A stretch of DNA of 33,721 bases from Deinococcales bacterium (GCA_043778225.1 JAYWGM010000033.1:1-33721), one strand, 5' to 3'. Counted from the stretch's first letter, positions 113 through 33,465 are shown. The notes: generated by a model from the letters alone, not told the origin. Made by a program: numbers and translations.

Positions 113-304
113 GGGGAGGTACTTAGAGGTATTTTTCTTATCGCATTCGGTAAACCAGGTATCACAAGACTCATTGGTTTGGTTAGATACGCTCCTTGAA
201 ACCTCGAGTTTCAAAGTCATTCTAAGCGTTCCAATTAACTTTGATGCTTCAAAGCCCCAAATCAGTTAAACTCGAGGTATACCAAATCTAAGGAGTCTCC
301 TCTC

Positions 305-2236
305 ATGTCCGATAACCGTATTGAATCTGTGCTGCACGAAACCCGTCGTTTTTCCCCGCCAGCCGACTTTGGTGGCAACATGAATTTAGACTTATACAAC
401 ACGATGTATAAACAAAGTCTCGAGCAACCTGAAGTCTTCTGGGCTGGTATCGCGGCTCAGTTGCATTGGTTTAAGCCGTGGGACAAAGTTCTCGAGTGGA
501 ACGAACCGCACGCCAAGTGGTTTGTTGGTGGTCAAACCAACATTTCGTACAACTGCCTTGACCGTCATCTCGAGCAACACGCCAATAAAGTTGCACTGGT
601 CTGGGAGGGCGAACCGGGTGATGTACGAAAACTGACCTATAAGGAGCTGCACAGCGAAGTCTGCAAATTTTCTAATGTCCTTAAAAGCCTAGGTATTGTG
701 TCTGGTGATAGGGTCACGATTTACTTACCCATGATTGTCGAAGCCGTCGTAGCAATGTTGGCTTGCGCTCGAGTCGGGGCGGTTCACAGTGTTGTCTTTG
801 GTGGCTTTAGCGCTGGCGCACTGTCTGACCGCATCAACGATTGCCAAAGTACGCTTTTAATCACCGCCGATGGCAGTTACCGCCGTGGCGCAATTGTGCC
901 ATTAAAGCAAAATGTGGACGAAGCCCTCGAGAATGCGCCAACCATCAAGAATGTGATTGTGGTGAAGCGTACCGCCCACGAAATCACGGTTAATCCTCGA
1001 GACCACTGGTATCACAACCTGATGGCAACTGCCTCGAGCGACTGCCCAGCCACGCCTCTGGATGCCGAACACCCGCTTTTTATTTTGTACACTTCTGGCA
1101 GCACTGGCAAACCCAAAGGCGTGCTGCACACCACAGGCGGTTACATGGTCGGCACGTACATCACGGCTAAGTATGTCTTTGACTTGCGCGATGCCGATAT
1201 TTATTTTTGCACCGCCGATGTCGGCTGGATAACTGGTCATAGTTATGTGGTCTACGGGATTCTCGAGAACGCTGGCACAAGCCTGATTTTTGAAGGTGCG
1301 CCAAATTACCCACACGCGGGGCGGCTCTGGGAAATTATCCAAAAGCACCAAGCCACGATTCTTTATACTGCGCCAACTGCTATTCGCAGCTTTATGCGTG
1401 GCGGCGACGAGCAACCCAACCGCTTTGATCTCTCGAGCTTGCGTTTACTTGGTACAGTTGGCGAACCAATCAATCCCGAAGCATGGCTGTGGTATCACCG
1501 TGTGATTGGCAAAGAAAGACTGCCGATTATAGACACCTGGTGGCAAACCGAAACAGGCAGTATGATGATTACCACCATTCCGGGCGCACATGAGACCAAA
1601 CCGGGCAGTGCGGGCTTACCGATGTTTGGCGTGGACGCGGCGATTGTGGACAAAGAAGGCAACGAACTTGGCGCAAACGAAGGTGGCTTTTTGGTGATTC
1701 GCAAACCCTTCCCAAGTATGCTCCGCACCATTTATGGCGACGACGAACGCTTTAAGCGCCAATACTACGGCGAGATTCCCAATGTTTACTTTGCTGGCGA
1801 TGGCGCTCGGCGCGACGAGGACGGCTACTTTACGATTGTTGGACGGATAGATGATGTGCTGAATGTCTCGGGACACCGCCTAGGCACAATGGAAGTTGAA
1901 AGTGCGCTGGTTTCGCATCCAAGTGTTGCCGAAAGTGCTGTGGTCGGCAGACCAGACCCGATTAAAGGCGAAGGAATTATTGCCTTTGTAACCCTAAAAA
2001 CGGGTAAGACCGCCACTGCCGAAGAACTTCGCGCCCATGTGACCAAAGAAATTGGCGCAATTGCCAGACCCGACGAAATAAAATTCACCGATTCGTTACC
2101 CAAAACCCGCAGTGGTAAAATCATGCGCCGTTTACTGCGCCAAATCGCTTCTGGGCAAGCCATGAGCGGCGACACCAGCACGCTCGAGGATGTTGGTGTG
2201 ATTCAAAAACTTCAAGCAGCCAACGATGAAGAATAA
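305..2236 (+). CDS. acs: Acetyl-CoA synthetase
   Basis: AMP-binding motif [21 protein letters not shown]-terminal [20 protein letters not shown] upstream. Confidence 0.98.
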
Positions 2237-2276
2237 GCTACCAAAGCCTAAAAGTCACGGCGTTAATCTCCGAGGC

Positions 2277-2305
2277 TTGACAGGTCAATTAAATTATGTT
2301 ATAAC
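2277..2305 (+). promoter_or_regulatory. Sigma70 promoter of ssb
   Basis: TTGACA (2277-2282), 17-nt spacer, TGn-TATAAC (2300-2305). Confidence 0.65.
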
Positions 2306-2310
2306 CATAA
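2294..2310. promoter_or_regulatory. RDRM-like (DdrO-binding) 17-bp palindrome
   Basis: TTATGTTATAACCATAA fits the TTAYG-N7-CRTAA shape; overlaps the -10 box of ssb, a known RDR regulon member in Deinococcus. Confidence 0.65.
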
Positions 2311-2386
2311 CCGACACACTCGAGTGTCAAAGCAACATACTAGGCAATCAAGAAATTCACTCAGAGAACAGCAAGGAGAACAGATT

Positions 2387-3184
2387 ATGGCTCGAGGTAT
2401 CAACAGTATTCTTTTAATTGGCGCATTGGTTCGGGATTCAGAACTTCGCTACACCCCCAATGGTGCCGCAATCCTTTCGTTTACCGTGGCTGGCGATAGC
2501 ACCATCACCGACAGCACTGGGGAGGTTCGCAGTGTGGCTTGGTATCACCGTGCCGAGTACATCTCGAAAAACGCTGAAACACTTGCCGAAAGCCTTAAAC
2601 CGGGGGCGGCATTGTTGCTCGAGGGTAAACTCGAGTATCAGGCTTGGGAAAATGACCTTGGCGAAAAGCGCAACCGCGTGGTCTTGCGGGTCAATCAACT
2701 CGAGGTGCTGCGTGAAACCAGTACCGAGCGTTTAACCGCCGACCGCACTGGTGGCTACAGGCTGCTTGAAGGGGTCAATCGGGCAGTCATTGCTGGCAAC
2801 CTGACCAAGGATGCGGTGCTGCGTCATACGAGTGCTGGCACACCAGTCACGAGTGTGGCGGTGGCGGTCAACGAATCTTGGAAAGATGCCAGTGGCGAAT
2901 GGCGCGAAAAAGCCCATTATTTGGATGTCACGCTCTGGGGTTCTTTGGCAGAAAGTGCCGCGATGCTGCAAAAAGGCACACCGATTTTTGTCTCGGGGCG
3001 GCTTGAGTCCGATTCTTGGACAGACAGCAGTGGACAAAAGCGCTCTAAACTGCAAATCAGTGCTGACCGCCTCGAAATTCTCGAGCGCCGTGCCAGCCAG
3101 ACCGAAAATGCCCAAGCCCCAAGCGAAGACCTTCCATTTGAAGCCCCGCCTGTTCGCCGTCAGCGCCGCAGCGCCGCCGCCTAG
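2387..3184 (+). CDS. ssb: Single-stranded DNA-binding protein, Deinococcus-Thermus double OB-fold type
   Basis: Two OB folds (MARGINSILLIG...ELRYTPNG; VNRAVIAGNLTKD); EDLPF near the C-terminus; start moved to ATG 2387 after AAGGAG. Confidence 0.93.
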   Translation: MARGINSILLIGALVRDSELRYTPNGAAILSFTVAGDSTITDSTGEVRSVAWYHRAEYISKNAETLAESLKPGAALLLEGKLEYQAWENDLGEKRNRVVLRVNQLEVLRETSTERLTADRTGGYRLLEGVNRAVIAGNLTKDAVLRHTSAGTPVTSVAVAVNESWKDASGEWREKAHYLDVTLWGSLAESAAMLQKGTPIFVSGRLESDSWTDSSGQKRSKLQISADRLEILERRASQTENAQAPSEDLPFEAPPVRRQRRSAAA

Positions 3185-3186
3185 GT

Positions 3187-3522
3187 ATGCAATCCAGTTT
3201 CTCGAGGGGCTTATCTGCCCCTCTGGTTTTTTTGTACCCACTCGAGCCAGACGCACACCTCGAGCGCACCCCACAAAACTTAGCGCGAATCGGACAGCAA
3301 ATGCTACAAACTCGGGTGCATCATCTGGTTTTGGGGTTGACTCGGCAAAGCATTGAAATTCTCGAGGTCAGTTTCTATCCGCCCACAGTATTGTGGCTAG
3401 AAGGTTGTGTTCCGATGTTGCTCGAGCCGTTTGAGCTTAGCGCTTGGCTGACAGCGACTGATGCCCAAGTCGAATTGTGTTGTCGCTATGGCGTTCTCGA
3501 GGTACGGCTACTCGAGGCATAA
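3187..3522 (+). CDS. Hypothetical protein
   Basis: 111-aa ORF starting 2 nt after the ssb stop; no recognisable motif; overlaps a terminator-like hairpin. Confidence 0.4.
   Translation: MQSSFSRGLSAPLVFLYPLEPDAHLERTPQNLARIGQQMLQTRVHHLVLGLTRQSIEILEVSFYPPTVLWLEGCVPMLLEPFELSAWLTATDAQVELCCRYGVLEVRLLEA
3204..3233 (+). terminator. Intrinsic terminator-like hairpin after ssb
   Basis: GAGGGGC-TTATCT-GCCCCTC then TGG-TTTTTTT. Confidence 0.6.
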
Positions 3523-3587
3523 GAATGTTCAGCCAAGCCTCAGTTTCGGCACAGACTTATCTCATGCTTTTGGCAGAAGATACCGCC

Positions 3588-4430
3588 ATGAAACAAAATC
3601 TTATTTTTGTCGGTGCGGCAGCAATCCTTGGTTTGGCTTTAGCCCAAAATAGTAATGGCTTTGAAGTGCTTCGTACCCCCGGCGCAAATAATCAGCTTGT
3701 GGTCACGGAATCTTCGCCTCGGGCTGCCAACCTAAAAATGCGTTGTGTTGGCTCGAGGGTCGAAGTGGTGCTTGACTCTAAACTGAACATCAGGCGCAAT
3801 CAGTCGCCGTTGGTTAGTTGGAAATTTGACGATGCCGCAATGCGCCAGCAGCGTTGGAACTTTGAACCCGAAAGCGGCTTACTGATTTTGCCACAAAATT
3901 TTACTCGCCAATTTCTGGAAGGTATTGCCGACTCGAGCCAAACCCGCATGACTTTCCCAGAAAAAAATAACTTGGCTTGGAATGCCACTTTTATAACCAC
4001 TGGTTTCCGTGAAGCCTATGTCGAATTACCTTGCAAGAGCGGTATGATTCTTGGCAATACCACCACGGTCACCAGCACGATGATGCCCAGCCGTATTTTG
4101 GATGCGACCGTGGCTTTTATCGCGCCGCTCGAGTTTGCCAAAGCCTTTGGTGGGCGCTTTGAACCAGAAGGAAACTTACTGGCTTGGGAATACAACGGTG
4201 TTAAATTGTTACTCGAGCGCGGCAGCACCACCGTCCAAAATGCGATTCAAAACACCAGCCTCGAGTTACCCCGTCCAGTCCAAATTGTTGGTGGGCGCAC
4301 GGTTGTCCCGGCTCGTCTGGTCAGTGCTTTTAACTGCAAACTCGAGCAAACCAAACCGACCGATTCGCTGGTCAAAGTCACTTGTGGGGCTGGTACAACC
4401 CTGCTCGAGCGCGATTTACCACGTTATTGA
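3588..4430 (+). CDS. Secreted protein with a copper-amine-oxidase N-terminal-like (stalk) domain
   Basis: Signal peptide MKQNLIFVGAAAILGLALA; C-terminal LPRPVQIVGGRTVVPARLV is typical of the stalk domain. Confidence 0.65.
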   Translation: MKQNLIFVGAAAILGLALAQNSNGFEVLRTPGANNQLVVTESSPRAANLKMRCVGSRVEVVLDSKLNIRRNQSPLVSWKFDDAAMRQQRWNFEPESGLLILPQNFTRQFLEGIADSSQTRMTFPEKNNLAWNATFITTGFREAYVELPCKSGMILGNTTTVTSTMMPSRILDATVAFIAPLEFAKAFGGRFEPEGNLLAWEYNGVKLLLERGSTTVQNAIQNTSLELPRPVQIVGGRTVVPARLVSAFNCKLEQTKPTDSLVKVTCGAGTTLLERDLPRY

Positions 4431-4508
4431 TGCACAAACCATGAATGTACTCGGTTTAGGTTTTAGTTAAGAAAGTCGTTATTCACAACTTAATAGGCAT
4501 TTTTTTAG

Positions 4509-4553
4509 AAGGCTCGAGTGGTTCACACAACCCGCTCGAGCCTTGGGTTTTTT
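4509..4553 (+). terminator. Terminator hairpin built from paired CTCGAG
   Basis: AAGGCTCGAGTGG...CCGCTCGAGCCTT then GGGTTTTTT. Confidence 0.6.
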
Positions 4554-4611
4554 CTGCATTGCTCGAGGGCAAACTATATCTCAAGCGCAGAAGCGCCAAG
4601 GAGCAAAAAAT

Positions 4612-5049: not shown

Positions 5050-5056
5050 TCATCCT

Positions 5057-5089
5057 AAATCTCGAGACGCTGCGTCTCGAGATTTTTTT
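5057..5089. terminator. Bidirectional terminator between convergent genes
   Basis: AAATCTCGAGACGC-T-GCGTCTCGAGATTT plus T-tract. Confidence 0.75.
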
Positions 5090-6113
5090 ATAACGGGAAA
5101 ATTCTGTTCGCCCATTGCTTGGGGTCGGTCGCTTCGGCACGTACCCGCATTTCCCAGTGCAAATGTGGCGCGGTGCTAAAACCAGTGTTACCAACCTTAC
5201 CAATCAGTTGCCCTTTTTTAACCACTTGCCCGACTTTGACCAAAATCTGGCTTTGATGAAAGTACAAGCTGACCACCCCAGCCCCGTGGTTAATGCCACT
5301 TAATCCACCACGAATCGGGTAAAAACCAGCCACCTCAACCACCCCGTCGTTGGTCGCATAAATCGGGTCGCCCATTTTTCCAGCCAAGTCTAAGCCATAG
5401 TGATAATTCACAACATCGTCTTTTTTATACAGCCGAGCTTGGGCAAAAGGACTGGTAAAAACCATCGGGCGTGGGTAAGCAAAAGTTTTATTCCATAAAC
5501 GCGGTGTGGAAATCGATTTTCTGTGGGCTGCATCTAAAATCGTACGTTCTCGAGTGCGGTTAGCATCGGTCAGGGTAGACAAAACAGCTTGGCTCATAAA
5601 AACATTCTGAACCGCTTGTGGGTCTGGCAGTAACTTGAGGCTCGAGTTAATCACTTCGCCGCCAAGGTTGGCTTGAATTGCCACAATTTTTGGTTTTGTC
5701 CCCAACAATTCGCGCCCAATGCCAACCCAATCGTTGCTATCTTGGGTCATGACCAGTTCTTCTTTTCCCCAAAAAACAACTGGTCTACCCGCCACCACGC
5801 CACGCAAGCGAATCAGTACAGGGTCGCCCGGAATGGCAGACTCACGGTGCGTCAGGCTCGAGCCAGCCCCAATTCCCTTGACGGTTGTCAGTGTAAAGCG
5901 ACTCGAGCTTGGTGGGTTTTCTGGCACATCTAAGACTTGTCCAACCCGAATTTCATTGGTTGTTAGGTTATTTAAGCGCTTTAACTCATCTGCCGAAATA
6001 CCATACTGCTTGGCAATACTAAAGAGTGTGTCGCCGCTTTGTACGGTATACGACCCCGCCAATGCCAAAAGGCTCGAGACAAGCAAAAAAACAATCAGCC
6101 AAGGTTTTTTCAT
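5088..6113 (-). CDS. LysM + M23 family peptidoglycan endopeptidase
   Basis: Signal peptide, LysM YTVQSGDTLFSIA, M23 motifs HYGLD and PHLHWE. Confidence 0.93.
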   Translation of the reverse strand: MKKPWLIVFLLVSSLLALAGSYTVQSGDTLFSIAKQYGISADELKRLNNLTTNEIRVGQVLDVPENPPSSSRFTLTTVKGIGAGSSLTHRESAIPGDPVLIRLRGVVAGRPVVFWGKEELVMTQDSNDWVGIGRELLGTKPKIVAIQANLGGEVINSSLKLLPDPQAVQNVFMSQAVLSTLTDANRTRERTILDAAHRKSISTPRLWNKTFAYPRPMVFTSPFAQARLYKKDDVVNYHYGLDLAGKMGDPIYATNDGVVEVAGFYPIRGGLSGINHGAGVVSLYFHQSQILVKVGQVVKKGQLIGKVGNTGFSTAPHLHWEMRVRAEATDPKQWANRIFPL

Positions 6114-6159
6114 TCACTTACCAGTCTAACCTTTTACTGGGTTTTTAAGTGCAACACAT

Positions 6160-7029: not shown

Positions 7030-7041
7030 GGAGATAGTATA

Positions 7042-7107: not shown

Positions 7108-7111
7108 CGCT

Positions 7112-10167: not shown

Positions 10168-10203
10168 TGGTATACTGTTTTTGGTGAAAATTTCACCAAA
10201 AAC
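10168..10203 (+). promoter_or_regulatory. Extended -10 box followed by a 27-bp palindrome
   Basis: TGG-TATACT, then GTTTTTGGTGAAA-A-TTTCACCAAAAAC. Confidence 0.6.
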
Positions 10204-10223
10204 TGAATTAAAGAGGTGAAATT

Positions 10224-11527
10224 ATGCTCATTCAATTCACTACTGGCAACTTTCGTTCAATTGCTAGTGATATTAATTTTTCAATGGAAGTAGCACCCAC
10301 CTCAAAACGGGCTAAAAAGATGCGTGTTGATATTGAAAATCAATTGAGATACCAAATACAAAATTACTGAAATCTGCCGTTTTGTATGGTGCAAATGCAA
10401 GTGGAAAAAGTAATTTTGTACAAGCAATTCGTTTTATGCGAAATTTTGTTTTGCGTTCCTCTGCAATGCAAATAGGCGACAACATTGATGTGTCAGCATT
10501 TCGTTTTATTGAAGGTTTTCAAGAGAAACCATCATCATTTGAAATTATTTTTTTTGCATCTGACCAAAAGACTTATCGCTATGGTTTTAGCGTTACCAAC
10601 GAAAAAGTGATTGAAGAATGGCTTTACGTCAAAAGTACATCAAGAGAAATTTGCTTATTTGAAAGGAGAGAGCAAAAATTTGATGTTAAAAAGAAATTTA
10701 TTGAAGGTGAAAATATAGCAAACAAAACTCGAGACAACGCCTTATTTTTACCGACAGTTGCCCAATTTAACGGAGAAGTCTCGAGACTAATTATAGACTG
10801 GTTTAGGAGAATTCAAATTATAGACGGAACTGCTGACCAAGACCAAAGTAACTCGGCTGCCCAAGCAATCACAGATGAGAAACTAAAGAGAAAAGTCAGT
10901 GACTTTATAAAAAACTTAGACCTTTCAATCCAAGATGTCACTGTCGAAAAAAGTTCTAATGTAATCGATGGAGATAGTGAAGGGTCACAAATACTCTCTT
11001 TTATACAACTCACAACAAAATTTTTCCGAGAATCAACAAAAGAGAGGACTAGACTTCAGGTAATGACACGACACAACAAATTTTCATCGGATGGCAACTT
11101 GATTGGTTCTGAGACGGTTGATTTAACTGAATACGAATCTGAGGGAACAAAAAAACTATTTAATTTTGCACCCGCTTTTCTCGAGGGCTTAGAAAATCAA
11201 AGAATTTTCATCATAGATGAACTTGATGCAAAGCTGCACCCGCTACTGACGATTGCACTTATCAAAATGTTCCACTCAAATACCGGCTCAGGACATTGCT
11301 CACAACTGGTTTTTACAACTCATGACACAAACTTACTGACATCTGAGTTGTTTAGGCGTGACCAAATTTGGTTTGCTGAAAAAGACAAATTTGGGGCAAC
11401 CCAAATGTATTCGCTTTATGATTTCAAGCCTCAAGGCAAAAATGTTCGTACCGATGAGTTGTACGAAAAAAACTATCTTATTGGTAAATATGGAGCAATT
11501 CCGTACCTTGGAAACTTGAGGTTTTAA
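10224..11527 (+). pseudogene. AAA_21 ABC-type ATPase (RloA/AbiLi-like), split by a 1-nt frameshift
   Basis: GAGG RBS and MLIQFTTGNFRSI N-terminus stop at 10368-10370; the other frame gives LLKSAVLYGANASGKSN (Walker A), ESEGT, IIDELD, FTTHD. Confidence 0.8.
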
Positions 11528-11528
11528 T

Positions 11529-12137
11529 ATGGCTCGCCACTCAAAACCCAAGTTTTCTCAAGGTCGCCCTGCACCTACCAAAACCACGAAAAAAACGTTC
11601 TTAATCTTTTGCGAAGGTGAAAAAACCGAGCCAGATTATTTTAGGGCTTTTCGGATACGCGCAGATGTTAGAAAATACAGAGTCGAGGGAACGGGGTTTA
11701 ATACTGAAAGTCTTGTCAGAGATGTAATTGAACAAATAGAAAGTGGTTACTATGGTGAATACGATGAGGTTTGGTGTGTTTTTGACAAAGATAGCTTCAA
11801 GCCCAACCAATTTAATACAGCAATTCAAATGGCGCTTTCAAACAAAATGAAAGCTGCATACAGTAACGAGGCGTTTGAACTTTGGTATCTTTTGCATTTT
11901 GAATACTGTGAATCTGGCTTGAATCGAGCGACCTATAAAAAGCGACTGACAAAATATTTTGGTAAAGAATACAAAAAGAACGACCCCAAGATGTATGAAA
12001 CACTGCTACCAAATCAGGCTACGGCTATCAGAAATGCAAAAAGATTAGCCCAAATGCACATTTCAAATTCACCCGCCGACCACAATCCTGTCACATTGGT
12101 GTATCAGTTGGTTGAATCATTAAACAGTCCCGAATAG
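11529..12137 (+). CDS. rloB: RloB-family (AbiLii-like, TOPRIM-like) protein
   Basis: LIFCEGEKTEPDYF, VWCVFDKD, SNEAFELWYLLHF, NPVT motifs; 1 nt after the ATPase. Confidence 0.9.
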   Translation: MARHSKPKFSQGRPAPTKTTKKTFLIFCEGEKTEPDYFRAFRIRADVRKYRVEGTGFNTESLVRDVIEQIESGYYGEYDEVWCVFDKDSFKPNQFNTAIQMALSNKMKAAYSNEAFELWYLLHFEYCESGLNRATYKKRLTKYFGKEYKKNDPKMYETLLPNQATAIRNAKRLAQMHISNSPADHNPVTLVYQLVESLNSPE

Positions 12138-12185
12138 GTTTTTAAATTTCACGTCTCGAGCATCCAAACTCGAGGCATCGATTTT

Positions 12186-13426: not shown

Positions 13427-13735
13427 CTATTGTGGGTCAGTCAGGCTCAGTAACTGGGCAATTCGGTCTCGAGCCTCGAGCAATTCCATGCCCTCAAGGG
13501 TTTTTATGGCTTTTTGTGCCACCGCTAAATTCACTTCTGAGTCGTTCCAACTGGCGGTCAGTTGTGCGAGGTCTTGTAAAACGCTTTTTTGGTTTTCGGT
13601 AAAAAACATCTTTGCAATCGCGCTCGAGGCAGCAATCGCAGGTGGTTTTGCGTCCAGCACAGCCACACGCACCACTGCCAGCAGTTCCATAAAGGTTTGG
13701 TCGGTCGCCGCACGGACTTTGGGGTCGAGTTTCAT
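13427..13735 (-). CDS. Hypothetical helical protein
   Basis: 102-aa ORF with TAGGCT 6 nt before ATG. Confidence 0.65.
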   Translation of the reverse strand: MKLDPKVRAATDQTFMELLAVVRVAVLDAKPPAIAASSAIAKMFFTENQKSVLQDLAQLTASWNDSEVNLAVAQKAIKTLEGMELLEARDRIAQLLSLTDPQ

Positions 13736-16041: not shown

Positions 16042-16106
16042 AAACAAGAGGAAGGTCAGCATATTATTTTCCTCTTTTCTCTGCTTTTGAATGGTAACAT
16101 TCTGGT

Positions 16107-17105
16107 ATGTCCGAAGCTCGAGTACCACTTTTTCCTGATTACCAAAGTCCAGCGTTTCGATTTGCTGATATTTTTGCGGGAATTGGTGGAATGCGACTTG
16201 GTTTTGAAGCGGTTGGCGGGCAGTGCGTTTTTTCTTCAGAATGGGATGTGCATTCGCAAAAAACGTACTTTGCAAATCATGCTGATTTTCCAAAGGGCGA
16301 TATTACACTTGTTCCTTCGAGTGAAATTCCTAATTTTGATGTGCTACTGGCAGGATTTCCGTGTCAGCCTTTTAGCAGTATTGGTTTGCGTCAAGGTTTT
16401 TTACATCAGACCCAAGGCACTTTGTTCTATGAAATTGCGCGGATTCTGCGCGATAAGAAACCACTGGCTTTTCTGCTTGAGAATGTTGAAGGGCTAGTCA
16501 CACATAACAACGGTGAGACCATGAGCATTATTCTCGAGACCCTGCGCGAACTTGGGTATGCTGTTTCGTACCAAGTGCTGGATGCTTCGCAATTTGGTGT
16601 GCCTCAGAAACGCAAACGCATTTATATTGTTGGACATAAACTCGAGAATGCAGAGTTTGCCTTTCCAAAAGGCACACGTTCAGATGTTTTTATTGGACAA
16701 TTTATTGAATCGAATATCGAAGGGTACAGTATTTCTGAGCATTTGCAAAAAACATATATTTTCAAAAAAGACGATGGTAAACCTGCGATAGTTAGCCCAG
16801 ACTCGAGGATTCAGATTAAAACCCAAGTCGCTTCGTATCATAAAATTCAGCGCTTAACAGGAACATTTGTGCGTGATGGGAAGACTGGCTTGCGCTTACT
16901 GACCGAAAACGAATGCAAAGCGATTATGGGATTCCCGCCGCATTTTATATTCCCAGTCTCGAGAACCCAAATGTACCGTCAGATAGGAAATTCGGTGACT
17001 ATACCTGTGATAGTCGAAATTGCTAAACAGATGTTTGGTAAAATTATTCAAGTACATTTTAATGAAAAACGTAGAAGTAAAGCCTATTCACGACATTTAG
17101 CTTAA
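16107..17105 (+). CDS. C5-cytosine DNA methyltransferase
   Basis: Motifs I FAGIGG, IV GFPCQPFS, VI ENV, VIII QKRKRIY, X RQIGNSV. Confidence 0.96.
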   Translation: MSEARVPLFPDYQSPAFRFADIFAGIGGMRLGFEAVGGQCVFSSEWDVHSQKTYFANHADFPKGDITLVPSSEIPNFDVLLAGFPCQPFSSIGLRQGFLHQTQGTLFYEIARILRDKKPLAFLLENVEGLVTHNNGETMSIILETLRELGYAVSYQVLDASQFGVPQKRKRIYIVGHKLENAEFAFPKGTRSDVFIGQFIESNIEGYSISEHLQKTYIFKKDDGKPAIVSPDSRIQIKTQVASYHKIQRLTGTFVRDGKTGLRLLTENECKAIMGFPPHFIFPVSRTQMYRQIGNSVTIPVIVEIAKQMFGKIIQVHFNEKRRSKAYSRHLA

Positions 17106-17136
17106 AAATGTTGGTAAAGATTATTGAGGAGAAAAT

Positions 17137-17736
17137 ATGGCAGATAACCTAGGCAAAAGAGCAATTAAGCAAGTTGATCTTGTAAAAGAATATTTCATGA
17201 GTCATCCAAATGAAGATATAAAACATAGCGAAGTGGTTGGCTGGTTACAGCAAACTTTTAAGGAAAGAACAGGTGGACAATTTGCAGATCCAGATAGACA
17301 AATTAGAACTTTGAGTCAACAAGGATTTCTAATAAAGAAGGCTAAGGGTGTCTATTGTTATGATCCTGAAGCAGTTCATTCACGCGAATTAGAGTATTTT
17401 TCTGATGAGCAAAAAAGAATAATTAAAGAACGTGATGGTTTTAAGTGTGTCATTTGTGGAAAAGGTGTTAAAGACGGAATTGAACTTCACGTTGATCATA
17501 TTAAACCCAAAGAACTAGGTGGACAAGCTATAATTGAAAACGGTCAAACATTATGTGCACAACACAATTTTATGAAAAAGACTTTAAAGCAAACTGAGAC
17601 AGGGAAAAAAATGTTTTTACGATTATATGAACTTGCAAAATCGGAAGGTGATACGAATTTACAAGATTTTTGTAAAGCAATTCTTTCAACTTTTGAAACC
17701 CATGGGATTAATGGACATATTGAGTGGAAACCATAA
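17137..17736 (+). CDS. HNH endonuclease, probable type II restriction partner
   Basis: RDGFKCVICG...HVDHIKP...GG...N.QTLC..HN; GAGGAG RBS; directly after the methyltransferase; AT-rich. Confidence 0.88.
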   Translation: MADNLGKRAIKQVDLVKEYFMSHPNEDIKHSEVVGWLQQTFKERTGGQFADPDRQIRTLSQQGFLIKKAKGVYCYDPEAVHSRELEYFSDEQKRIIKERDGFKCVICGKGVKDGIELHVDHIKPKELGGQAIIENGQTLCAQHNFMKKTLKQTETGKKMFLRLYELAKSEGDTNLQDFCKAILSTFETHGINGHIEWKP

Positions 17737-17842
17737 TGCAATTAGAAGCTTTTAGATATATTACGAGCAGTGCGAATAGAAGAGTCGCCTTCACAAAAAT
17801 GCTTGTTCAACATTTGGTTCTCTCCTCAGCGATGGTGCAAGC

Positions 17843-25805: not shown

Positions 25806-26972
25806 ATGCTTGGTATGATTCACGCGCCAGAAGCCCCGATTTTTAAGGCGTTGTTGATTTTAGCCACACTGGTACTGCTTGGGGCTGGCTTGGTTGGGCG
25901 CTATCTCGAGCCGCGTTTTGCTAAACAGTTGCGCCTGATAATTAATCTGGCTGCGCCGTTTTTGATTGTCTCGAGCTTGGTGGATGTGGGTTTTACGGCT
26001 TGGCGAGCGCTTTTAGAACTCAATCCCTATTTGTACGGAGCATACATGACTGCCAGCCGACACGGGCAGTGGGTCATGGCTCGAGTTGCCGCCGCCTGCG
26101 CTTTGTGGTGGCTTTCCAGCACTTCTCGAGTTCGTTTTGACAAGTATTTACACGCTTTGGCGTGCTTGGTTTTGGGTTGTAGTTTATCCATGACAACCCA
26201 CAGTGGCGCAACGGGCGAAGTGCTGCCAGTCTTTGGCGATTTGCTGCATTTATTTTCGATGATTGTCTGGGTCAGCAGTGTGGCGGTGTTGGCACTTGGC
26301 AAGTTTGTAGCTCGAGATGGGGTTGTGGCGGCGACTCGAGTCTCGAGTATTGCCGCTTGGTGTGTTGGTTTACTGACCTTAACGGGGATTTATCAAAGCC
26401 TGATTAAACTCTGGTCGCCCGCCCTGTTGGTCGAAACACAGTACGGCACAACTTTAACGATTAAACTTTTACTCTATGCCGTTGTGCTGGCTTTTGCAGC
26501 CATCAACCGATTTTATTGGCTGCCACAACTTTCAAAGCGGCAGAATTTATTTGGGCGTTTTCAGAGTGCCACCCGAATTGAACTCACCTTACTTGTGACC
26601 GTACTTTTTGCTACTGCAACGCTTGGCAGTACCGCCCCACCAGAACGCGATGTGCGGCTGGTTGCGCCAGTTGTGGTCAAAGAAACTAAGGGGGTCTGGA
26701 CACTGACCGCTAATGCCACCACGCCTGCAATTGGTGGCTTACGGCTCGAGTTTAAGATTACTGGGCAAAATGGCTATAAGCTCGAGTTAGATGCCCGAGT
26801 GGATGTCAATCTTTTTATGTCGGCAGATGGCATGACAATAGCCCAAAACCCAACAAGGCGCAAAGATGGTTCTTATTTCCTCGAGACTCGGCTAGGAATG
26901 CCGGGCGAATGGAATATCCAAATTAAAGTACCTGGTGCAAGTTGGCGCATTCCACTTCGATTTAAGGATTGA
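25806..26972 (+). CDS. CopD-family membrane protein with a C-terminal FixH/YtkA-like domain
   Basis: Multiple TM helices, TTHS, LHL...W, LTG, T.YG..L..KL; MPGEWNI tail. Confidence 0.8.
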   Translation: MLGMIHAPEAPIFKALLILATLVLLGAGLVGRYLEPRFAKQLRLIINLAAPFLIVSSLVDVGFTAWRALLELNPYLYGAYMTASRHGQWVMARVAAACALWWLSSTSRVRFDKYLHALACLVLGCSLSMTTHSGATGEVLPVFGDLLHLFSMIVWVSSVAVLALGKFVARDGVVAATRVSSIAAWCVGLLTLTGIYQSLIKLWSPALLVETQYGTTLTIKLLLYAVVLAFAAINRFYWLPQLSKRQNLFGRFQSATRIELTLLVTVLFATATLGSTAPPERDVRLVAPVVVKETKGVWTLTANATTPAIGGLRLEFKITGQNGYKLELDARVDVNLFMSADGMTIAQNPTRRKDGSYFLETRLGMPGEWNIQIKVPGASWRIPLRFKD

Positions 26973-28759: not shown

Positions 28760-29157
28760 TGCAGATACTCGGGATTCATCCACATCACTTCCCAAATATG
28801 ACCATCGAGGTCTTGGAAACCATGCTGGTACATAAAACCATGGTCTTTGGCTTGGTTGTAGGTATTTCCGCCGGCTGCCACAGCTTTTGCGACCATGGTT
28901 TCAACTTCGGCTCGAGATTCGCAAGACAACGCCACCAGCACCTCGGTGCTGACTCGAGCATTGCTAATCGCGTTTGGCGTAAAGGTCTGGAAAAATGGCT
29001 CGGTCACCAGCATCGCAAAGATATTTTCTTCAATCACCATACAGGCTGCCGCCTCGTTGGTAAATTGGGCGTTGTAGGAAAACCCCAAGGCACGAAAAAA
29101 GGCTTGGGAGGCTTCTAAATTCTTGACGGGTAAATTCACAAAAATATTTCTTGGCAT
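28756..29157 (-). CDS. VOC/glyoxalase family protein
   Basis: IFVNLPVKNL...FF.ALGF, GFMY...F.DLDGH.WE. Confidence 0.9.
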   Translation of the reverse strand: MPRNIFVNLPVKNLEASQAFFRALGFSYNAQFTNEAAACMVIEENIFAMLVTEPFFQTFTPNAISNARVSTEVLVALSCESRAEVETMVAKAVAAGGNTYNQAKDHGFMYQHGFQDLDGHIWEVMWMNPEYLQ

Positions 29158-29164
29158 GGTTCTC

Positions 29165-29710
29165 CTATTTGATGGCGCTGTAGGCTTGCTCGAGCCACCC
29201 GAGTAATTCGGTGTCTATTTCGGTGGTGTGACTAATTCCAACGCGGTGTGTGACCATGTTGTTCCAAGTTCCAGCCAACTCGAGACGTGGTGTGGCAGCC
29301 ATGTTTTTGAATTTAATGCCAATCTCGAGTCGGTCTTTACTCGATGGCTGGACAATGCCAAATTTCTTATTGTTTTTCAGTAAACTGATGTAGCTGTTGG
29401 TTGGCGCAAGGGTCACATCTGGGGCAAAGATTTTTATTTTCTCGAGCAGTACCTCAAAGGTTTCACGCCAGACCGCTTTTGTGCCAGTAAAGACTTGCTC
29501 GAGTCGGTCGTCGGGGCTGGGTCTGCCTGATTCAAGGGTTTTTAGTACGGCTGCAATCGCATTGGCGTGTCCGTGACCTAAACCAAAGTCGGCTTTGAGC
29601 CAAGCAATAATCTCGCCATGCTTGGTTAAACCTTTTTCGGTGGCAATGACCTGAAAATCGGCTGGGGTTTTACCCGTTTTGGCTTTGATGCTGTCTAAGT
29701 AGGCTTGCAT
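29165..29710 (-). CDS. DUF4287 + DUF5655 domain protein
   Basis: QAYLD.I..KTGK, WLK.DFGLGHGHANA; C-terminal ID.EL..WL..AY; AGGAG RBS. Confidence 0.8.
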   Translation of the reverse strand: MQAYLDSIKAKTGKTPADFQVIATEKGLTKHGEIIAWLKADFGLGHGHANAIAAVLKTLESGRPSPDDRLEQVFTGTKAVWRETFEVLLEKIKIFAPDVTLAPTNSYISLLKNNKKFGIVQPSSKDRLEIGIKFKNMAATPRLELAGTWNNMVTHRVGISHTTEIDTELLGWLEQAYSAIK

Positions 29711-30275
29711 GGTTCTCCTTATGGGTTTTGACCACATCAAAACGCAAGTGGGTCACACCAACACTTTCTATCACCTTGGTTTGCTCGAGCTTGACCGCAC
29801 CAATATGTTCAAACAGCCGTAGTCCTTCGCCCAGTAAAACTGGCACAAGATGAATACGAATTTCGTCCACCAATCCAGCTTTGATAAATTGTTGGACTGT
29901 GTTTGCGCCACCTGCAATACAAATATCTTTTTTGCCAGCTACGGCTTTGGCTTGCTCGAGACAGGATTCTAAACCATCGGCGATAAAAAACATCGGCGTT
30001 TTTCCGGGTATGCGCCGTGTTGTGATACTGCGCGACAAGATAAAATGTGGCATTTGATAAGGATTATTTTCGTCATAAGCCCCATTGTCACTACCCGCTT
30101 CGTAACTTTTGCGACCCATAACCATCGCCCCGATGTTTTCGATCAGTTCGGCAATAACAGCTTGACTGGCTAGGGCGGGAGCAAAGTACCAATTGTGTAA
30201 GCCATGATCTTCGCCGTTAGAACCGCTTATAAATCCATCAAGCGACATTGCCAAGTCTATAAAAACTTTGCTCAT
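29670..30275 (-). CDS. Dihydrofolate reductase/RibD C-terminal family protein
   Basis: MSLDGFI, MGRKSY, GGA..VQQF..AGLVDE....VPVLLG.G.RLF. Confidence 0.9.
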   Translation of the reverse strand: MSKVFIDLAMSLDGFISGSNGEDHGLHNWYFAPALASQAVIAELIENIGAMVMGRKSYEAGSDNGAYDENNPYQMPHFILSRSITTRRIPGKTPMFFIADGLESCLEQAKAVAGKKDICIAGGANTVQQFIKAGLVDEIRIHLVPVLLGEGLRLFEHIGAVKLEQTKVIESVGVTHLRFDVVKTHKENHASLLRQHQSQNG

Positions 30276-30278
30276 GAT

Positions 30279-30770
30279 TTAGGCAACCCAACCCAACAGT
30301 TGTGTTGGTAGTGGTTTGCCGAGCGCACGCAGATAGACACTGGCTTTGGCGGCAAAAATAAAAACCGATTCGCGGTAAGTAAAAAAGGTTGTTTCGGCAG
30401 GTAAGCCCCACGTGCCTCGAGCGATGGTTTTTTTGAGGTCGGTGTCAGAAAGTTGCTCGAGGGCAGCCATCATGGCTTGGTCTAAGGTTTCAAACCAAGT
30501 TTTGAATTCTGCCACCGTGTGGATGGCTGGCGCGGTGGCATCAAAAACCAACTCAAAGCTGCCAAAGGCTTTGGTGTACGCCATTTGAAATGTGCCTTGC
30601 TCGAGCAGCAGTTCGGCGAAACTCAGGCTCGAGCCACCGAGCGAAAAGGTCAAATCGGGGTCGGTTATCGCCTCGAGAATTTCGGTTCTGAGGTTGTGGG
30701 TCGTGTCTATCAGTATGGCTTTTTTGGCAATGAGGTGATTCATCTCGAGGTTTACTTGGATTTGTGCCAT
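30279..30770 (-). CDS. DinB-like four-helix protein
   Basis: L..I.D.DL.F......SF..LL, VYLRALG pattern; AAGGAG RBS; canonical His ligands not evident. Confidence 0.65.
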   Translation of the reverse strand: MAQIQVNLEMNHLIAKKAILIDTTHNLRTEILEAITDPDLTFSLGGSSLSFAELLLEQGTFQMAYTKAFGSFELVFDATAPAIHTVAEFKTWFETLDQAMMAALEQLSDTDLKKTIARGTWGLPAETTFFTYRESVFIFAAKASVYLRALGKPLPTQLLGWVA

Positions 30771-30861
30771 AAAAATACTCCTTTGTGCCGTATACCCGTG
30801 TGCAAAATTTTACGCAACAAGTCTCATGGCTTTCTATGCCAATATGTTTGTCGGTATTTAG

Positions 30862-30892
30862 ATTATAACATAATGAGATTGCAAACTGCAAT
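30862..30892 (-). promoter_or_regulatory. Promoter with palindromic operator candidate for the five-gene operon
   Basis: Minus strand TTGCAG-18 nt-TATAAT with TGn extension; ATTGCA-AAC-TGCAAT palindrome at 30878-30892. Confidence 0.55.
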
Positions 30893-30920
30893 AGCTTAGA
30901 ATTGTAGTAAGTCGAACAAT

Positions 30921-31151
30921 CTAACGACGTTTTCTGGGATGCTGGGCAGCTAAACGCTCATTGCCGTGCTTATAATTGCCAGTTATCCGAGCCATCAGTT
31001 GTTGTTCCTCGACAAGGGTTGCGCCAGCCACATCCTCGAGAAAGGCTTGAGCGGTTAAGGAACGCAATATCGTTATTTCCTTGCCGTTTCTCGAGATGTA
31101 AACCTCACCAGATTTGCTGACTCGAAAGGTAAAATCAAGGTCTTCGGACAT
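30921..31151 (-). CDS. Small hypothetical protein
   Basis: TATAAT 6 nt before ATG 31151; QLMARITGNYKHGNER tail. Confidence 0.7.
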   Translation of the reverse strand: MSEDLDFTFRVSKSGEVYISRNGKEITILRSLTAQAFLEDVAGATLVEEQQLMARITGNYKHGNERLAAQHPRKRR

Positions 31152-31177
31152 CACAAGATTATATCGTCTTGGGTAGC

Positions 31178-31774
31178 TCAAGACCGGCTTGTAGCGGGTT
31201 GCTCGAGCCTATGCAGGGCTTCCTCGAGTGCTTTGGCATGGCTTTCTTGTGTTCCTTGGGGCAGAATCGGTGTTCCGTACCTGAACACAAAGCGCTTAGC
31301 CCCAAACCAATTGGTCTCGAGATGAATCCCTGCGGGTATGACTGGCACTTTGGCTTTTAGGGCAAGCATTGATGCACCGCCCTTCACTTCTTGTCCGCCG
31401 CGTGTGCCTTGTGGAAAAATCACCAGCAATTGGTTATTTTGTAATAAACGCAAAGCGGTTTTGATCGCCGTCAAATCCATTTTGCCGCGCTCGACAGGAA
31501 AGGCGTTGCCACTTAACATATACCAGCGCAAGGGCTGATGCGTAAACGATTCAGCTTTGGACATATAATGCACCCGGCGCTTGGTTGGTTGCGCCACCCC
31601 AAATGGGTCTATGGCGGTGATGTGATTGGCGGCAATAATCGCAGCGCCAGCCTTGGGAATAGCACTTGGGTTCATGTAGCTCGAGCCAAGAATACGAAAA
31701 TACACGCCCCAAATGGCTTTGATGATGTCAAACGCCAATGGCATATTTGATAAATCAGGATTTTTGTCGTTCAC
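31178..31774 (-). CDS. plsC: Lysophospholipid acyltransferase (PlsC family)
   Basis: NHITAID (HX4D), FPVER, IFPQGTR. Confidence 0.88.
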   Translation of the reverse strand: MNDKNPDLSNMPLAFDIIKAIWGVYFRILGSSYMNPSAIPKAGAAIIAANHITAIDPFGVAQPTKRRVHYMSKAESFTHQPLRWYMLSGNAFPVERGKMDLTAIKTALRLLQNNQLLVIFPQGTRGGQEVKGGASMLALKAKVPVIPAGIHLETNWFGAKRFVFRYGTPILPQGTQESHAKALEEALHRLEQPATSRS

Positions 31775-32424
31775 GGATTCACCAACCTCTTTTGAATCAA
31801 CTCGAGGGCTTGGGCAATGGTCTGTTCTAAGGTCAAGTCGCTCGAGTCAAGCAATATCGCATCGGTGGCGGGGGCGCTGTTACTTGCATCCATCGTGTCT
31901 CGAGCTTCGATGCTGGCTTGGACTTCGGCTAAACTTTTGCTGCGTTCTGCGACACGGCGTTTGGCTCGAGTCTGGCTACTGGCGGTTAAAAAGATTTTAA
32001 CATCGGCATTGGGAAAAACATTTGTTCCCATATCGCGCCCTTCGGCTAAAAATGGTGGCTTGAGTTGCCGAATTTGGCGGTTGACCCAAGCCCGAATCTG
32101 TGGGTGCTGTGCCACCACACTGACCAAGGCATCCACCAGAGTTGAATGGCATTGGGCAGTCACATCCAAATTATTCAAAAAAACCACATTGCCCAAAACT
32201 CGAGCCTCAAAACGCAACTCCCCCAATAACTCAAGTAAGGCAGTTTCCGAATGCTGGTCGGTTTTACTGGTCTGGGCAGCCAATGCCACCAAGCGGTAGA
32301 GTAAGCCACTGGAGATAAATGGTATCTGTAAAATGTTGGCGATGCCTTGCGCCACACTGGATTTGCCACTGGCAGCCAAGCCATCAAGGGTGATGATTGT
32401 GTTTGGGGATAAAGAAGATGCCAC
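31771..32424 (-). CDS. cmk: Cytidylate kinase
   Basis: ITLDGLAASGKSS, SGLLYR, EGRDMGT.VFP.A.VKIFLTAS; TATACT 7 nt before GTG 32424. Confidence 0.93.
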   Translation of the reverse strand: MASSLSPNTIITLDGLAASGKSSVAQGIANILQIPFISSGLLYRLVALAAQTSKTDQHSETALLELLGELRFEARVLGNVVFLNNLDVTAQCHSTLVDALVSVVAQHPQIRAWVNRQIRQLKPPFLAEGRDMGTNVFPNADVKIFLTASSQTRAKRRVAERSKSLAEVQASIEARDTMDASNSAPATDAILLDSSDLTLEQTIAQALELIQKRLVNP

Positions 32425-32436
32425 AAAGGAGAGTAT

Positions 32437-32469
32437 AAAGGTCAAAGGGTCAAAAGGTGAAAAGTAAAC
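32437..32469. repeat. Single-arm copy of the octamer repeat
   Basis: AAAGGTCAAAGGGTCAAAAGGTGAAAAGTAAAC. Confidence 0.7.
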
Positions 32470-32485
32470 ATACCCCAGAATTCTT

Positions 32486-32767
32486 CTAAGCACTTGGCAG
32501 GATAGTCGGAGTCTTGAGAACCGAGAACCCCCAAACTCTGGTTTTAACATTCTCTAGGTTCAGGTCGGCTTGGCGCACGGTTTGTAGTAATTCGGCGCGG
32601 CTCGAGACCTCTAAAAGCAGCACCCTTGGGTCTTCGGTGTTTTGCAGTAGGCGGGTGCTGGTCACGCCAGCCACGCTATCGAACAAACGCTTTAAGTGGT
32701 GCAGCGCCTCCATTGTGGCGCTGTTGGCAGTTTCAGGCAGAGTAACCTCGAGAAATAGCACAAACAC
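32486..32767 (-). CDS. Small hypothetical protein (ferredoxin-like/ABM-like pattern)
   Basis: GTG start 2 nt after the Crp stop; beta-alpha-beta-beta pattern. Confidence 0.55.
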   Translation of the reverse strand: MFVLFLEVTLPETANSATMEALHHLKRLFDSVAGVTSTRLLQNTEDPRVLLLEVSSRAELLQTVRQADLNLENVKTRVWGFSVLKTPTILPSA

Positions 32768-32769
32768 AC

Positions 32770-33465
32770 TTATTCATCCTCAGCTATAAACTTTTCGAGC
32801 TTTTGGGTGTTGATAATAAATGGCACTCGAGTGCGAGCGATTGCCCCTTCACGCTTGAGACGATTTAAGCTGTGCGAGACGGTTTCTCGGGTTGCACCAA
32901 TCATGCGCGATAAGTCTTCTTGGGTCAGTTTTAAGTGAATTCGCACGCCATCTGTCCCCGTTTTGCCAAACTCGAGCGCAAAGCGGTAGAGCAAACTGGC
33001 GAGTCGGGCTGGGGCGCTGTAGGCACTGACTTCGGCTTGCCACGATTGGGTTTCAAAAAGGCGCTGCGCCATAATCTGAATAAATTTAAGGGCTAAGGCT
33101 GGACGTTCACGGATTAAATCCTCGAGTTCAGAAATCGGTAGGGCAATTAAAACTGTGTCTTCAATCGCTTCGGCTTGGTGCGGACGCTTTTCGGCTGGGG
33201 TTAAGAGCAATTCGCCAAATGCACCATACTGCCCGACCACACCCAGAATCGCTTCTTTGCCGTTAGGAAATAACTTGGAGATTTTAACCAGTCCAGAGCG
33301 GATAAAATAAATTGCATCGGCAAAGTCGTCCATATGATAAATCACGTCACCCGCCGCAAAACGGCGATATGGCGTGGTCTTAGAAAGTTTTGCCAAATCC
33401 TCGAGTTCCCAGTCTTCAAATAAGCTGGTGCTTTTGAGGTGCCAAACAAGACTGGGGAATTCCAC
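32770..33465 (-). CDS. Crp/Fnr family transcriptional regulator
   Basis: cNMP domain (YFIRSGLVKI, FGE), HTH LTQEDLSRMIGATRETVS; TAGACT 6 nt before GTG. Confidence 0.95.
   Translation of the reverse strand: MEFPSLVWHLKSTSLFEDWELEDLAKLSKTTPYRRFAAGDVIYHMDDFADAIYFIRSGLVKISKLFPNGKEAILGVVGQYGAFGELLLTPAEKRPHQAEAIEDTVLIALPISELEDLIRERPALALKFIQIMAQRLFETQSWQAEVSAYSAPARLASLLYRFALEFGKTGTDGVRIHLKLTQEDLSRMIGATRETVSHSLNRLKREGAIARTRVPFIINTQKLEKFIAEDE

Follow-up and report, generated by a model that had tools for sequence, protein, structure and literature searches.

The locus and its palindrome

The window, a stretch of 33,721 nucleotides from a Deinococcales bacterium (GCA_043778225.1, JAYWGM010000033.1), is contig C33 of a 4.03-Mb assembly in 107 contigs with a guanine plus cytosine (GC) content of 48.7%, hereafter G000. 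It encodes, among others, acs, the acetyl-CoA synthetase gene, a single-stranded DNA-binding protein (SSB) and a C5-cytosine DNA methylase (Table 1), and throughout its genes and spacers it carries the six-base palindrome CTCGAG, the subject of this work. The palindrome occurs in 196 exact copies, beginning with one at 203-208 and ending with one at 33400-33405, where 100 dinucleotide-preserving shuffles gave 4.30 ± 1.98 copies and a maximum of 10. An earlier note on this DNA had described CTCGAG as a highly iterated palindrome (HIP) and had counted 39 copies up to base 5100; the count is exact and the description stands, while the loss of the other six-base palindromes and the grading of the trait across the order had been missed. 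Nor is the excess confined to the window, as G000 carries 24,877 copies, which amounts to 6.2 per kb or about 1 copy per 160 bp.

The expected number depends on the model, being 931 at zero order (observed 26.7x), 524 for Markov order 1 (47x) and 1,651 for order 2 (15x). At order 4 the observed/expected ratio (O/E) is just 1.16, but only because almost every CTCGA or TCGAG 5-mer in G000 already belongs to a CTCGAG. The palindrome is the top hexamer of G000, threefold ahead of the next-ranked words, which are its own overlapping ones, and each of the first 40 contigs listed has 4.2-8.0 copies per kb. It is not the cyanobacterial HIP1 proper, GCGATCGC, of which G000 has 11 copies; CGATCG is present in 182 copies (O/E 0.195).

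Regarding its anatomy, the element is a bare hexamer, as the ten positions on either side carry at most 0.033 bit each, and the 8-bp palindromic extensions are all depleted relative to independent flanks (CCTCGAGG 0.30, TCTCGAGA 0.74, ACTCGAGT 0.78 and GCTCGAGC 0.88). The gaps between copies in G000 are near-exponential (mean 161, coefficient of variation 1.00), their sole periodicity is the 3-base coding period, and neither helical phasing nor a pairing preference was seen in them. Pairs within spacers are random except at the shortest lags, with 0 against 19.5 expected at lag 6 and 0.55 of expectation at lags 8-12; lag 6 is absent because this spacing would create GAGCTC, a word purged from the genome, as described below.

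The one-off variants of CTCGAG are 18-190 times rarer than the palindrome itself in G000, with transitions at 1.14-1.42x and transversions at 0.13-0.90x of expectation. Among the transitions, CTTGAG/CTCAAG and TTCGAG/CTCGAA stand at 1.36-1.42x and the position-2 transition at 1.14-1.18x, and no single position shows depleted transition neighbours. The ratio of CTCGAG to each transition neighbour is about 18:1, where composition predicts about 1:1, which would imply a scaled fixation advantage S of about 3 per site at mutation-fixation equilibrium. This is the strength of strong codon bias, so that many sites would each matter a little.

Table 1. Features of the window (positions counted from its first base).
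Feature	Position	Strand	Remarks
Dispersed repeat, about 125 bp	1-128		Folds into hairpins; without CTCGAG
CTCGAG field, 196 copies in genes and spacers	203..33405	no strand	5.81 per kb
CTCGAG site in acs, frame 0	569..574	+	CTC GAG, Leu-Glu (LEQ)
CTCGAG site in acs, frame 1	768..773	+	GCT CGA GTC, Ala-Arg-Val
CTCGAG site in acs, frame 2	1033..1038	+	GCC TCG AGC, Ala-Ser-Ser
SSB, two OB folds in a single chain	2324-3184		Best solved relatives 1se8, 2fxq, 2cwa
Low-GC, CTCGAG-poor islet	10201..12140	+	GC 0.371; 3 sites, 1.55 per kb
AAA_21 ATPase and RloB-like protein	10382-12137		In the islet at 10201..12140; 36-37% GC
CTCGAG pair 7 bases apart (CTCGAGNCTCGAG)	13468..13480	no strand	Closest spacing seen
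Second low-GC, CTCGAG-poor islet	16042..17842	+	GC 0.385; 5 sites
C5-cytosine DNA methylase	16107-17105		Holds all 5 CTCGAG of the islet at 16042..17842
HNH nuclease	17137-17736		Without CTCGAG
Second CTCGAG pair 7 bases apart	26335..26347	no strand	In a CopD-like gene

Pressure on the DNA, codon choice and proteins

The genes of G000 were taken as the 3,305 longest non-overlapping open reading frames (ORFs), covering 88% of the DNA, and the codon control consisted of shuffling synonymous codons inside each gene, which keeps the proteins and the already inflated codon usage. Under this control the ORFs hold 2,361 ± 30 copies, compared to 21,972 observed (9.3-fold), and shuffling the order of the codons leaves 1,041. 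The non-coding DNA has 2,943 copies where 88-94 are expected (31x), and the densities of the two fractions are 6.16 per kb (coding) and 6.12 per kb (non-coding). The coding copies are distributed over frames 0, 1 and 2 as 12,975, 4,411 and 4,538, with 59% in frame 0, read as Leu-Glu; in acs, the three frames given by the earlier note (LEQ at 569, ARV at 768 and ASS at 1033) are right.

Codon choice yields to the palindrome, as 69% of the 18,776 Leu-Glu pairs of G000 are spelt CTCGAG, where independent codon use predicts 6.8%, and CTC makes up 9.7% of the Leu codons where the following codon is not GAG. The palindrome also takes in 4,427 of the 12,335 CGA codons and 4,555 of the 15,559 TCG codons. 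The amino acid sequence is also shifted, with the Leu-Glu dipeptide of G000 at 2.3x its composition-based expectation. When 40 orthologs of G000 and the Deinococcus-like G040 were aligned, Leu-Glu was found 218 and 97 times, respectively, with equal contents of Leu (1,712 vs 1,706) and Glu (989 vs 957); in 18 orthologs shared with the Thermus-like G020 the counts were 100 and 76, though G000 has fewer Leu and Glu. Over nine genomes, in small samples of 16-172 orthologs, the composition-based Leu-Glu O/E climbs with the intensity of CTCGAG (Table 2). The reversed dipeptide Glu-Leu was rejected as a control for this excess and replaced by the ortholog-matched counts and composition-based O/E; it is unsafe, as the motif-free Thermus-like genome also has a Leu-Glu/Glu-Leu ratio of 1.65-1.8.

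These results bear on the explanation that the excess is a product of codon usage, dipeptide usage or base composition, or was introduced during assembly. Frame 0 does hold the majority of coding sites, CTC and GAG are favoured in high-GC relatives, and the Thermus-like genome reaches 0.85 copies per kb with a shuffle ratio of only 1.2. Against this stand the 9.3-fold excess over the codon shuffle, the 31-fold excess in non-coding DNA, the occupation of three frames and the recurrence in 19 independent assemblies, which leave this explanation a negligible probability. Thus, the excess survives codon control, and the earlier proposal that the pressure is on DNA and not on protein agrees with the occupation of all frames and spacers, with the override of codon choice and with the raised Leu-Glu content: the pressure for CTCGAG acts at the DNA level, overriding codon choice and shifting the amino acid sequence.

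Loss of the other palindromes

CTCGAG is surrounded by a near-total absence of words of its own kind. Among the 64 six-base palindromes, 53 are below half of expectation in G000, 34 below a tenth and 24 below 3%, with a median O/E of 0.077 compared to 0.82 for the 2,016 non-palindromic pairs. GACGTC, AGGCCT and GGGCCC are left with 1 copy each, GGCGCC with 3, CTTAAG with 8 and GAGCTC with 24, while AAATTT (2.5x), AGCGCT (2.2x), CAATTG (2.2x) and TTGCAA (1.9x) are tolerated. Shorter and degenerate sites are affected as well: GGCC has 131 copies in 4 Mb (O/E 0.009), GATC an O/E of 0.13 and CCWGG of 0.12-0.13, and the rarest non-palindromes without GGCC, GATC, CTAG or CCGG mostly fit GRCGYC, RCATGY, GDGCHC and GGNNCC. 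The window itself lacks 31 of the 64 palindromes and has 165 palindromic hexamers other than CTCGAG, where about 519 are expected.

The same is seen across the window's family, here f1. In 400 kb of G026, from another genus of this family, the median palindrome O/E is 0.33, with 0 copies of CAGCTG, GTCGAC and GGCGCC, and the depletion of words containing GGCC falls far short of that in G000. Seven more family genomes, sampled at single loci, have a pooled O/E of 0.31-0.47 for the 63 palindromes other than CTCGAG. Purges in the outgroups are weaker, with medians of 0.32-0.82. The purge is therefore family-wide, with targets that differ between genomes. About 22 loci in G000 match DNA-methyltransferase families, most of them in low-GC, motif-poor islets, and together with the purge they form the signature of intense, changing type II restriction pressure.

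Such pressure makes palindromes rare, but it does not make one palindrome 27-fold enriched. It could be argued that CTCGAG is merely the single palindrome left uncut by all restriction enzymes of the lineage, its abundance being a side effect of the purge, as 53 of the 64 palindromes are purged with few others spared, and none of the 13 family genomes searched yielded the XhoI family. The spared words, however, stand at an O/E of about 1-2 and CTCGAG at 27; since any two palindromes are two or more substitutions apart, a single step is not enough to turn a purged site into CTCGAG; and the override of codon usage, which is tenfold, and the raised Leu-Glu content would not follow from tolerance, which is accordingly very improbable. 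Pure tolerance, codon usage and artefact are effectively excluded. In practical terms, the abundance of CTCGAG means that any XhoI-type enzyme would shatter this DNA. The near-absence of the other six-base palindromes shows genome editing driven by restriction in an extreme form.

Distribution across the order

The sample drawn at phylum level comprises genomes of the window's order only. That the window belongs to Deinococcota had been guessed in the earlier note, which fits the SSB with two OB folds, on which the lineage assignment rests: its best solved relatives, 1se8, 2fxq and 2cwa, are SSBs of Deinococcus and Thermus, which have this architecture. Family f1 comprises 19 genomes in 5 genera, in assemblies that are 57-94% complete, so that an absent gene means one that was not found. 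DNA of the window was matched in 19/19 of these independently assembled genomes, including G026, a single contig of 5.1 Mb. In a first sample, 13/13 family genomes had 12,028-35,442 copies of CTCGAG, at 4.3-6.8 per kb, and the same range was obtained for 16/16 family genomes in an order-wide survey of 161 genomes with completeness of at least 80%; the local GC in the family is 0.45-0.64.

Outside the family the trait is graded. Several genera of the order are intermediate (2-3.4 copies per kb), and in 23 genomes of the Thermus-like genus g9 there are 1,455-2,537 copies, the same as for the control word GAGCTC. The 42 genomes of genus g7, which appears to be Deinococcus-like from its genome size and GC, have 26-942 copies per genome, that is, avoidance, and a 120-kb sample of one of them, G040, has 3 where 41 are expected. 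Codon-preserving shuffles of samples of 90-400 kb (400 kb for G026) show the same grading (Table 2), and the excess in short spacers follows the same order as the shuffle ratios. The trait is strongest in the window's family but not limited to it, and it is inverted in one genus. As a description, CTCGAG is almost certainly a genuine, lineage-wide highly iterated palindrome.

Table 2. CTCGAG and Leu-Glu in nine genomes of the order; the spacer value 10-13 is the range of four genomes.
Genome	Family, genus	CTCGAG, observed/codon-preserving shuffle	CTCGAG excess in short spacers (x)	Leu-Glu O/E (composition-based)
G000	f1, g1	9.3		about 2.4
G162	f2, g41	8.0	10-13	1.62
G026	f1, g3	5.1	27	2.09
G110	f5, g13	3.45	10-13	1.53
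G122	f5, g22	3.1	10-13	1.62
G019	f4, g11	2.0	10-13	1.41
G013	f2, g6	1.5	6	1.31
G020	f5, g9	1.2	2	1.17
G040	f3, g7	0.06	0.3	0.90

Some side observations were made in this survey. The carriers outside the family were G162 (loci L388-L393), G110 (L354-L363), G122 (L364-L373) and G019 (L374-L379); such carriers include 99-100% complete genomes, of genera g13, g22 and g11, which may be cultured strains. In the G040 sample (L239-L244), TGATCA, also a palindrome, shows 5.9-fold enrichment. Clusters of three CTCGAG on viral contigs (at least 126 stretches, 80 loci examined) were rejected as carriers, as the contigs are mostly of 60-72% GC with CTCGAG about as frequent as GAGCTC, which indicates a codon effect in most of the loci examined. 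The CTCGAG:GAGCTC counts are 39:0 at L117, 16:0 at L174 and 18:1 at L102, which may be phages of related hosts.

Retention and turnover of sites

In the close relatives G003 and G005, which diverge by 5.4% over 28.5 kb, 278 of 302 CTCGAG sites (92%) are retained. For hexamers at large the value is 76%, and it is 75% both for 179 words that share the composition of CTCGAG and for its one-off neighbours; of 172 words with at least 40 occurrences, ten are kept more often. Retention above control words, as conservation among relatives is described for HIP1 by Xu et al. 2018 (PMC5861425), is thus seen in this close pair. With G001 as outgroup (12.4 kb), 68 sites are common to all three genomes, with 5 terminal losses and 6 gains. 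CTCGAG is lost at about a third of the rate of control words, its gains and losses are in balance, and preservation is not tied to particular positions.

The distant pair G000 and G026 behaves differently. In 159 orthologs with 55,157 aligned codons and a fourfold-site identity of 36%, there are 529 conserved Leu-Glu pairs, spelt CTCGAG at 381 in G000 and at 219 in G026; both genomes have the palindrome at 162, where 157.7 are expected under independence (odds ratio 1.18, p = 0.43). In addition, at 300 of 681 frame-0 sites of G000, G026 has another dipeptide (LD, LQ, LA, LN, ME, VE or IE). Site positions are independent between genera, and the pressure applies to any site anywhere. These data are equally compatible with selection on density, with molecular drive and with biased repair.

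Position-independence would also suit a role in which CTCGAG binds an abundant chromosome-organising or replication-linked protein, as GATC does with Dam and SeqA, with selection acting on density. The 6.2 copies per kb are of the same order as GATC in E. coli, at about 4 per kb, and GATC is purged in G000 (O/E 0.13), so another word would be needed. A nucleoid role has been argued for HIP1 by Xu, Lawrence and Durand 2018 (PMC5861425). On the other hand, nucleoid proteins usually tolerate degenerate sites, while the one-off variants are rare here; the gaps have no periodicity beyond the codon period and no pairing preference, and no candidate reader was found. Such a role is rather improbable.

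Search for a cognate enzyme

The earlier note had suggested that the palindrome might be generated by methylation-directed repair. In its general form, this explanation holds that the sites are marked by a CTCGAG methyltransferase and that biased mismatch repair linked to it, of the kind modelled for HIP1 by Elhai (PMC4390886) or of the Dcm/Vsr type, converts near-cognate words into CTCGAG, whose abundance would be a functionless by-product. Several results speak for it: equal coding and non-coding density and random placement fit a mutational or repair drive; sites are kept in close relatives yet position-independent between genera; a strict hexamer with uninformative flanks is what enzymes of the restriction-modification type read; and G000 is rich in methyltransferases.

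The enzymes themselves were searched for with profiles, bearing in mind that methyltransferase specificity is not readable from sequence, so that CTCGAG may still be methylated. Vsr (PF03852) was found in 0/19 family genomes, with a match in the E. coli control. The XhoI nuclease family (PF04555) was found in 0/13 family genomes, and its lone match in 21 genomes in all is in G015, of another family, at L002:6897-8794, convergent with a PF01555 methylase. This methylase was rejected as a lead, as it has at most 26% identity in G000. G015, a 2.3-Mb genome with its XhoI-family nuclease gene, still has 3,937 copies of CTCGAG.

As for methyltransferases (PF00145, PF02384, PF01555 and PF07669), none of those in G000 has an ortholog in all of G026, G011, G010, G012 and G006, whose sets differ widely. 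G010, which is 91% complete, yielded no C5 methylase, nor did the single-contig G026 yield an N6_N4 methylase, and the best identity of any G000 methyltransferase to those of G026 is 26-32%. Matches of at least 40% identity are the window's methylase with G006 (80%), C2_309 with G012 (66%), C99_1006 with G011 (58%), C38_447 with G006 (54%, confined to the N-terminal part) and C92_501 with G006 (41%). D12-class enzymes occur in 18/19 family genomes, in several unrelated types, none of them universal; one group, 55-93% identical across three genera (G026, G009, four g5 genomes and G001), was considered as a shared enzyme and rejected, being absent from G000 and having, in g5 and G001, the look of a mobile pair. 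In G001, G011, G022, G023 and G024 (L225-L231), a D12 methylase of 279-286 aa lies beside a conserved low-GC ORF of 365-397 aa, and the two may be a mobile restriction-modification pair; beside the D12 methylase of G026 and G009, which is of native GC, no homolog of the partner ORF was seen.

These absences (Vsr, C5 in G010, N6_N4 in G026, and identities of 26-32% at best) go against biased repair, as does the behaviour of the neighbouring words: the deamination-type neighbours stand at 1.36-1.42x, similar to the position-2 transition at 1.14-1.18x, and very-short-patch repair drives one position, while CTCGAG is held at all six. With no methyltransferase ortholog found in common between G000 and the five genomes compared, unrelated D12 types and no single depleted transition position, generation by methylation-directed repair is left unsupported in the form given by the earlier note, and the broader explanation is unlikely, although it comes second in support.

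Imported DNA and islets in the window

Motif-free gaps of at least 1.5 kb number 19 in G000, compared to 2.45 expected, and have a mean GC of 0.39. In accordance, the CTCGAG O/E of genes in G000 is 6.1 below 36% GC, 19 at 36-40% and 25-28 above 40%. Imported low-GC DNA carries fewer copies, so that the motif separates native from imported DNA.

The window has two islets of this kind (Table 1). The AAA_21 ATPase and the RloB-like protein of the first are probably an imported defence-type pair, and the islet looks like imported DNA yet to acquire CTCGAG. In the second, the catalytic half of the C5 methylase is nearest to M.HhaI in a PDB search, and its 80%-identical counterpart is the one in G006 mentioned above.

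The repeat at the window's start looks like a miniature inverted-repeat transposable element. BLAST with 140 bases as query returned 37 pieces in G000, of which 12 span at least 120 bases. Other family genomes also hold many copies, with 78-91% identity and frequently at the ends of contigs.

A possible role in the exchange of kin DNA

The reading that we place first is that CTCGAG functions as a signal for the uptake and/or recombination of kin DNA, and we give it a probability of roughly 0.35. It would work as follows. A symmetric, presumably dimeric, protein would read the hexamer, which would be a tag of "self" favouring the uptake and/or recombination of DNA from kin, and a weak DNA-level pressure, acting site by site and independently of position, would keep the palindrome at about 1 per 160 bp. 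This reading is ranked ahead of methylation-linked repair, and that in turn ahead of a chromosome-organising site, because of the analogy with HIP1 and because the palindrome purge implies exposure to foreign restriction enzymes; the near-total loss of palindromes suggests heavy DNA traffic between strains with different restriction systems. A more specific version is put forward as tentative: the tag for self-DNA would operate with no dedicated, conserved methyltransferase, in a clade of Deinococcales from which nearly all other restriction-type palindromes have been deleted.

Several points weigh against an uptake or recombination signal. Known uptake sequences are longer, non-palindromic and present at about 1 per kb, and uptake in Thermus is reported not to be sequence-specific. 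ComEC (PF03772) is intact in 18/19 family genomes, but it is also present in 10/14 control genomes, which makes it weak evidence. Slow loss with random placement is equally expected under biased repair or gene conversion, the value S = 3 presumes equilibrium with equal forward and back mutation rates, and the gene set is crude, consisting of longest ORFs made without a gene finder. Moreover, the effect of HIP1 on transformation is methylation-dependent (bioRxiv 10.1101/2024.09.10.611283), and no conserved methyltransferase was found in the family genomes compared here.

If this version is right, the abundance of CTCGAG and the palindrome loss would be two sides of one lifestyle, that of very frequent DNA exchange between strains with different restriction systems, and CTCGAG would be the first signal of the HIP or DNA uptake sequence (DUS) type in Deinococcota and the densest known. 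The avoidance in the Deinococcus-like genus and the graded, cultured-looking relatives would then make the HIP question testable outside cyanobacteria. With strong, intermediate, absent and inverted states, one order offers the contrasts by which hypotheses of methylation, repair, uptake and a nucleoid role can be compared and tested.

Comparison with known systems

Palindrome avoidance in prokaryotic genomes is said to have been described by Gelfand and Koonin in 1997 and by Rocha et al. in 2001. The depletion seen here, which affects 53 palindromes out of 64 as well as degenerate sites, resembles this avoidance and bears its type II restriction signature. It differs in its unusual depth, with several palindromes at 1-10 copies in 4 Mb, and in its coexistence with one palindrome driven the opposite way.

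Dcm/Vsr very-short-patch repair, whose bias on CCWGG in E. coli was reportedly described by Bhagwat and McClelland in 1992, is alike in that a repair enzyme linked to a methyltransferase can make its recognition word more frequent by depleting a neighbouring one. There, however, the effect is about twofold at one position, while for CTCGAG it is 27-fold at all six; Vsr was found in 0/19 family genomes, and CTTGAG and TTCGAG, at 1.39-1.40x, are not depleted.

The DUS of Neisseriaceae and the uptake signal sequences (USS) of Pasteurellaceae are 9-12 bp long and non-palindromic, with a graded flanking consensus, and occur at about 1 per kb. CTCGAG shares with them the over-representation of a short word in core genes at family level, the peptide bias and the scarcity in imported DNA, and the molecular-drive model for these sequences predicts a weak per-site advantage and turnover, as seen with CTCGAG. 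It differs in being a bare 6-bp palindrome with uninformative flanks instead of a non-palindromic 9-12-mer.

The closest comparison is with HIP1 and the alternate HIPs of cyanobacteria; HIP1, to our knowledge, has been without explanation for three decades, and we know of the HIP phenomenon only from cyanobacteria. A full-text search, with most subscription journals outside its coverage, found no paper on CTCGAG over-representation in Deinococcota. New in the present data are the near-total palindrome purge, the graded and inverted order-wide distribution, the contrast between site independence across genera and retention within one close pair, the unsuccessful searches for Vsr, XhoI and shared methyltransferases, and the caution on Glu-Leu. 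5-Methylcytosine methylation of CTCGAG is described in a Halorubrum with 560 sites only (PMC8112702), which is not relevant here.

HIP1 occurs in cyanobacteria at about 1 per kb, and a HIP-specific methyltransferase wherever HIP is abundant is among the criteria of Elhai 2015 (PMC4390886). A periodicity of 10-90 kb is also reported for HIP1. Methylated HIP1 raises natural transformation (bioRxiv 10.1101/2024.09.10.611283), HIP1 abundance correlates with uptake-related genes, and HIP1 has the methyltransferases DmtA and DmtC (PMC13756078); an uptake-signal role is proposed in this recent work (bioRxiv 10.1101/2024.09.10.611283, PMC13756078). CTCGAG differs from HIP1 in its length (6 bp vs the 8 bp of GCGATCGC), its word and its phylum, in being about six times denser, in the statistical independence of its positions between genera and in that no conserved cognate methyltransferase was found for it in the family. 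What the two have in common is a perfect short palindrome, hyper-abundant genome-wide in genes and spacers throughout a lineage rich in restriction-modification, conserved among close relatives above control words and scarce in foreign DNA. With an excess of at least about 10-fold genome-wide, in all frames and between genes, shared by the lineage and reduced in acquired DNA, CTCGAG bears out the earlier claim of a non-cyanobacterial, HIP1-like palindrome, and a second, independent and denser HIP-like case in another phylum shows the phenomenon to be general.

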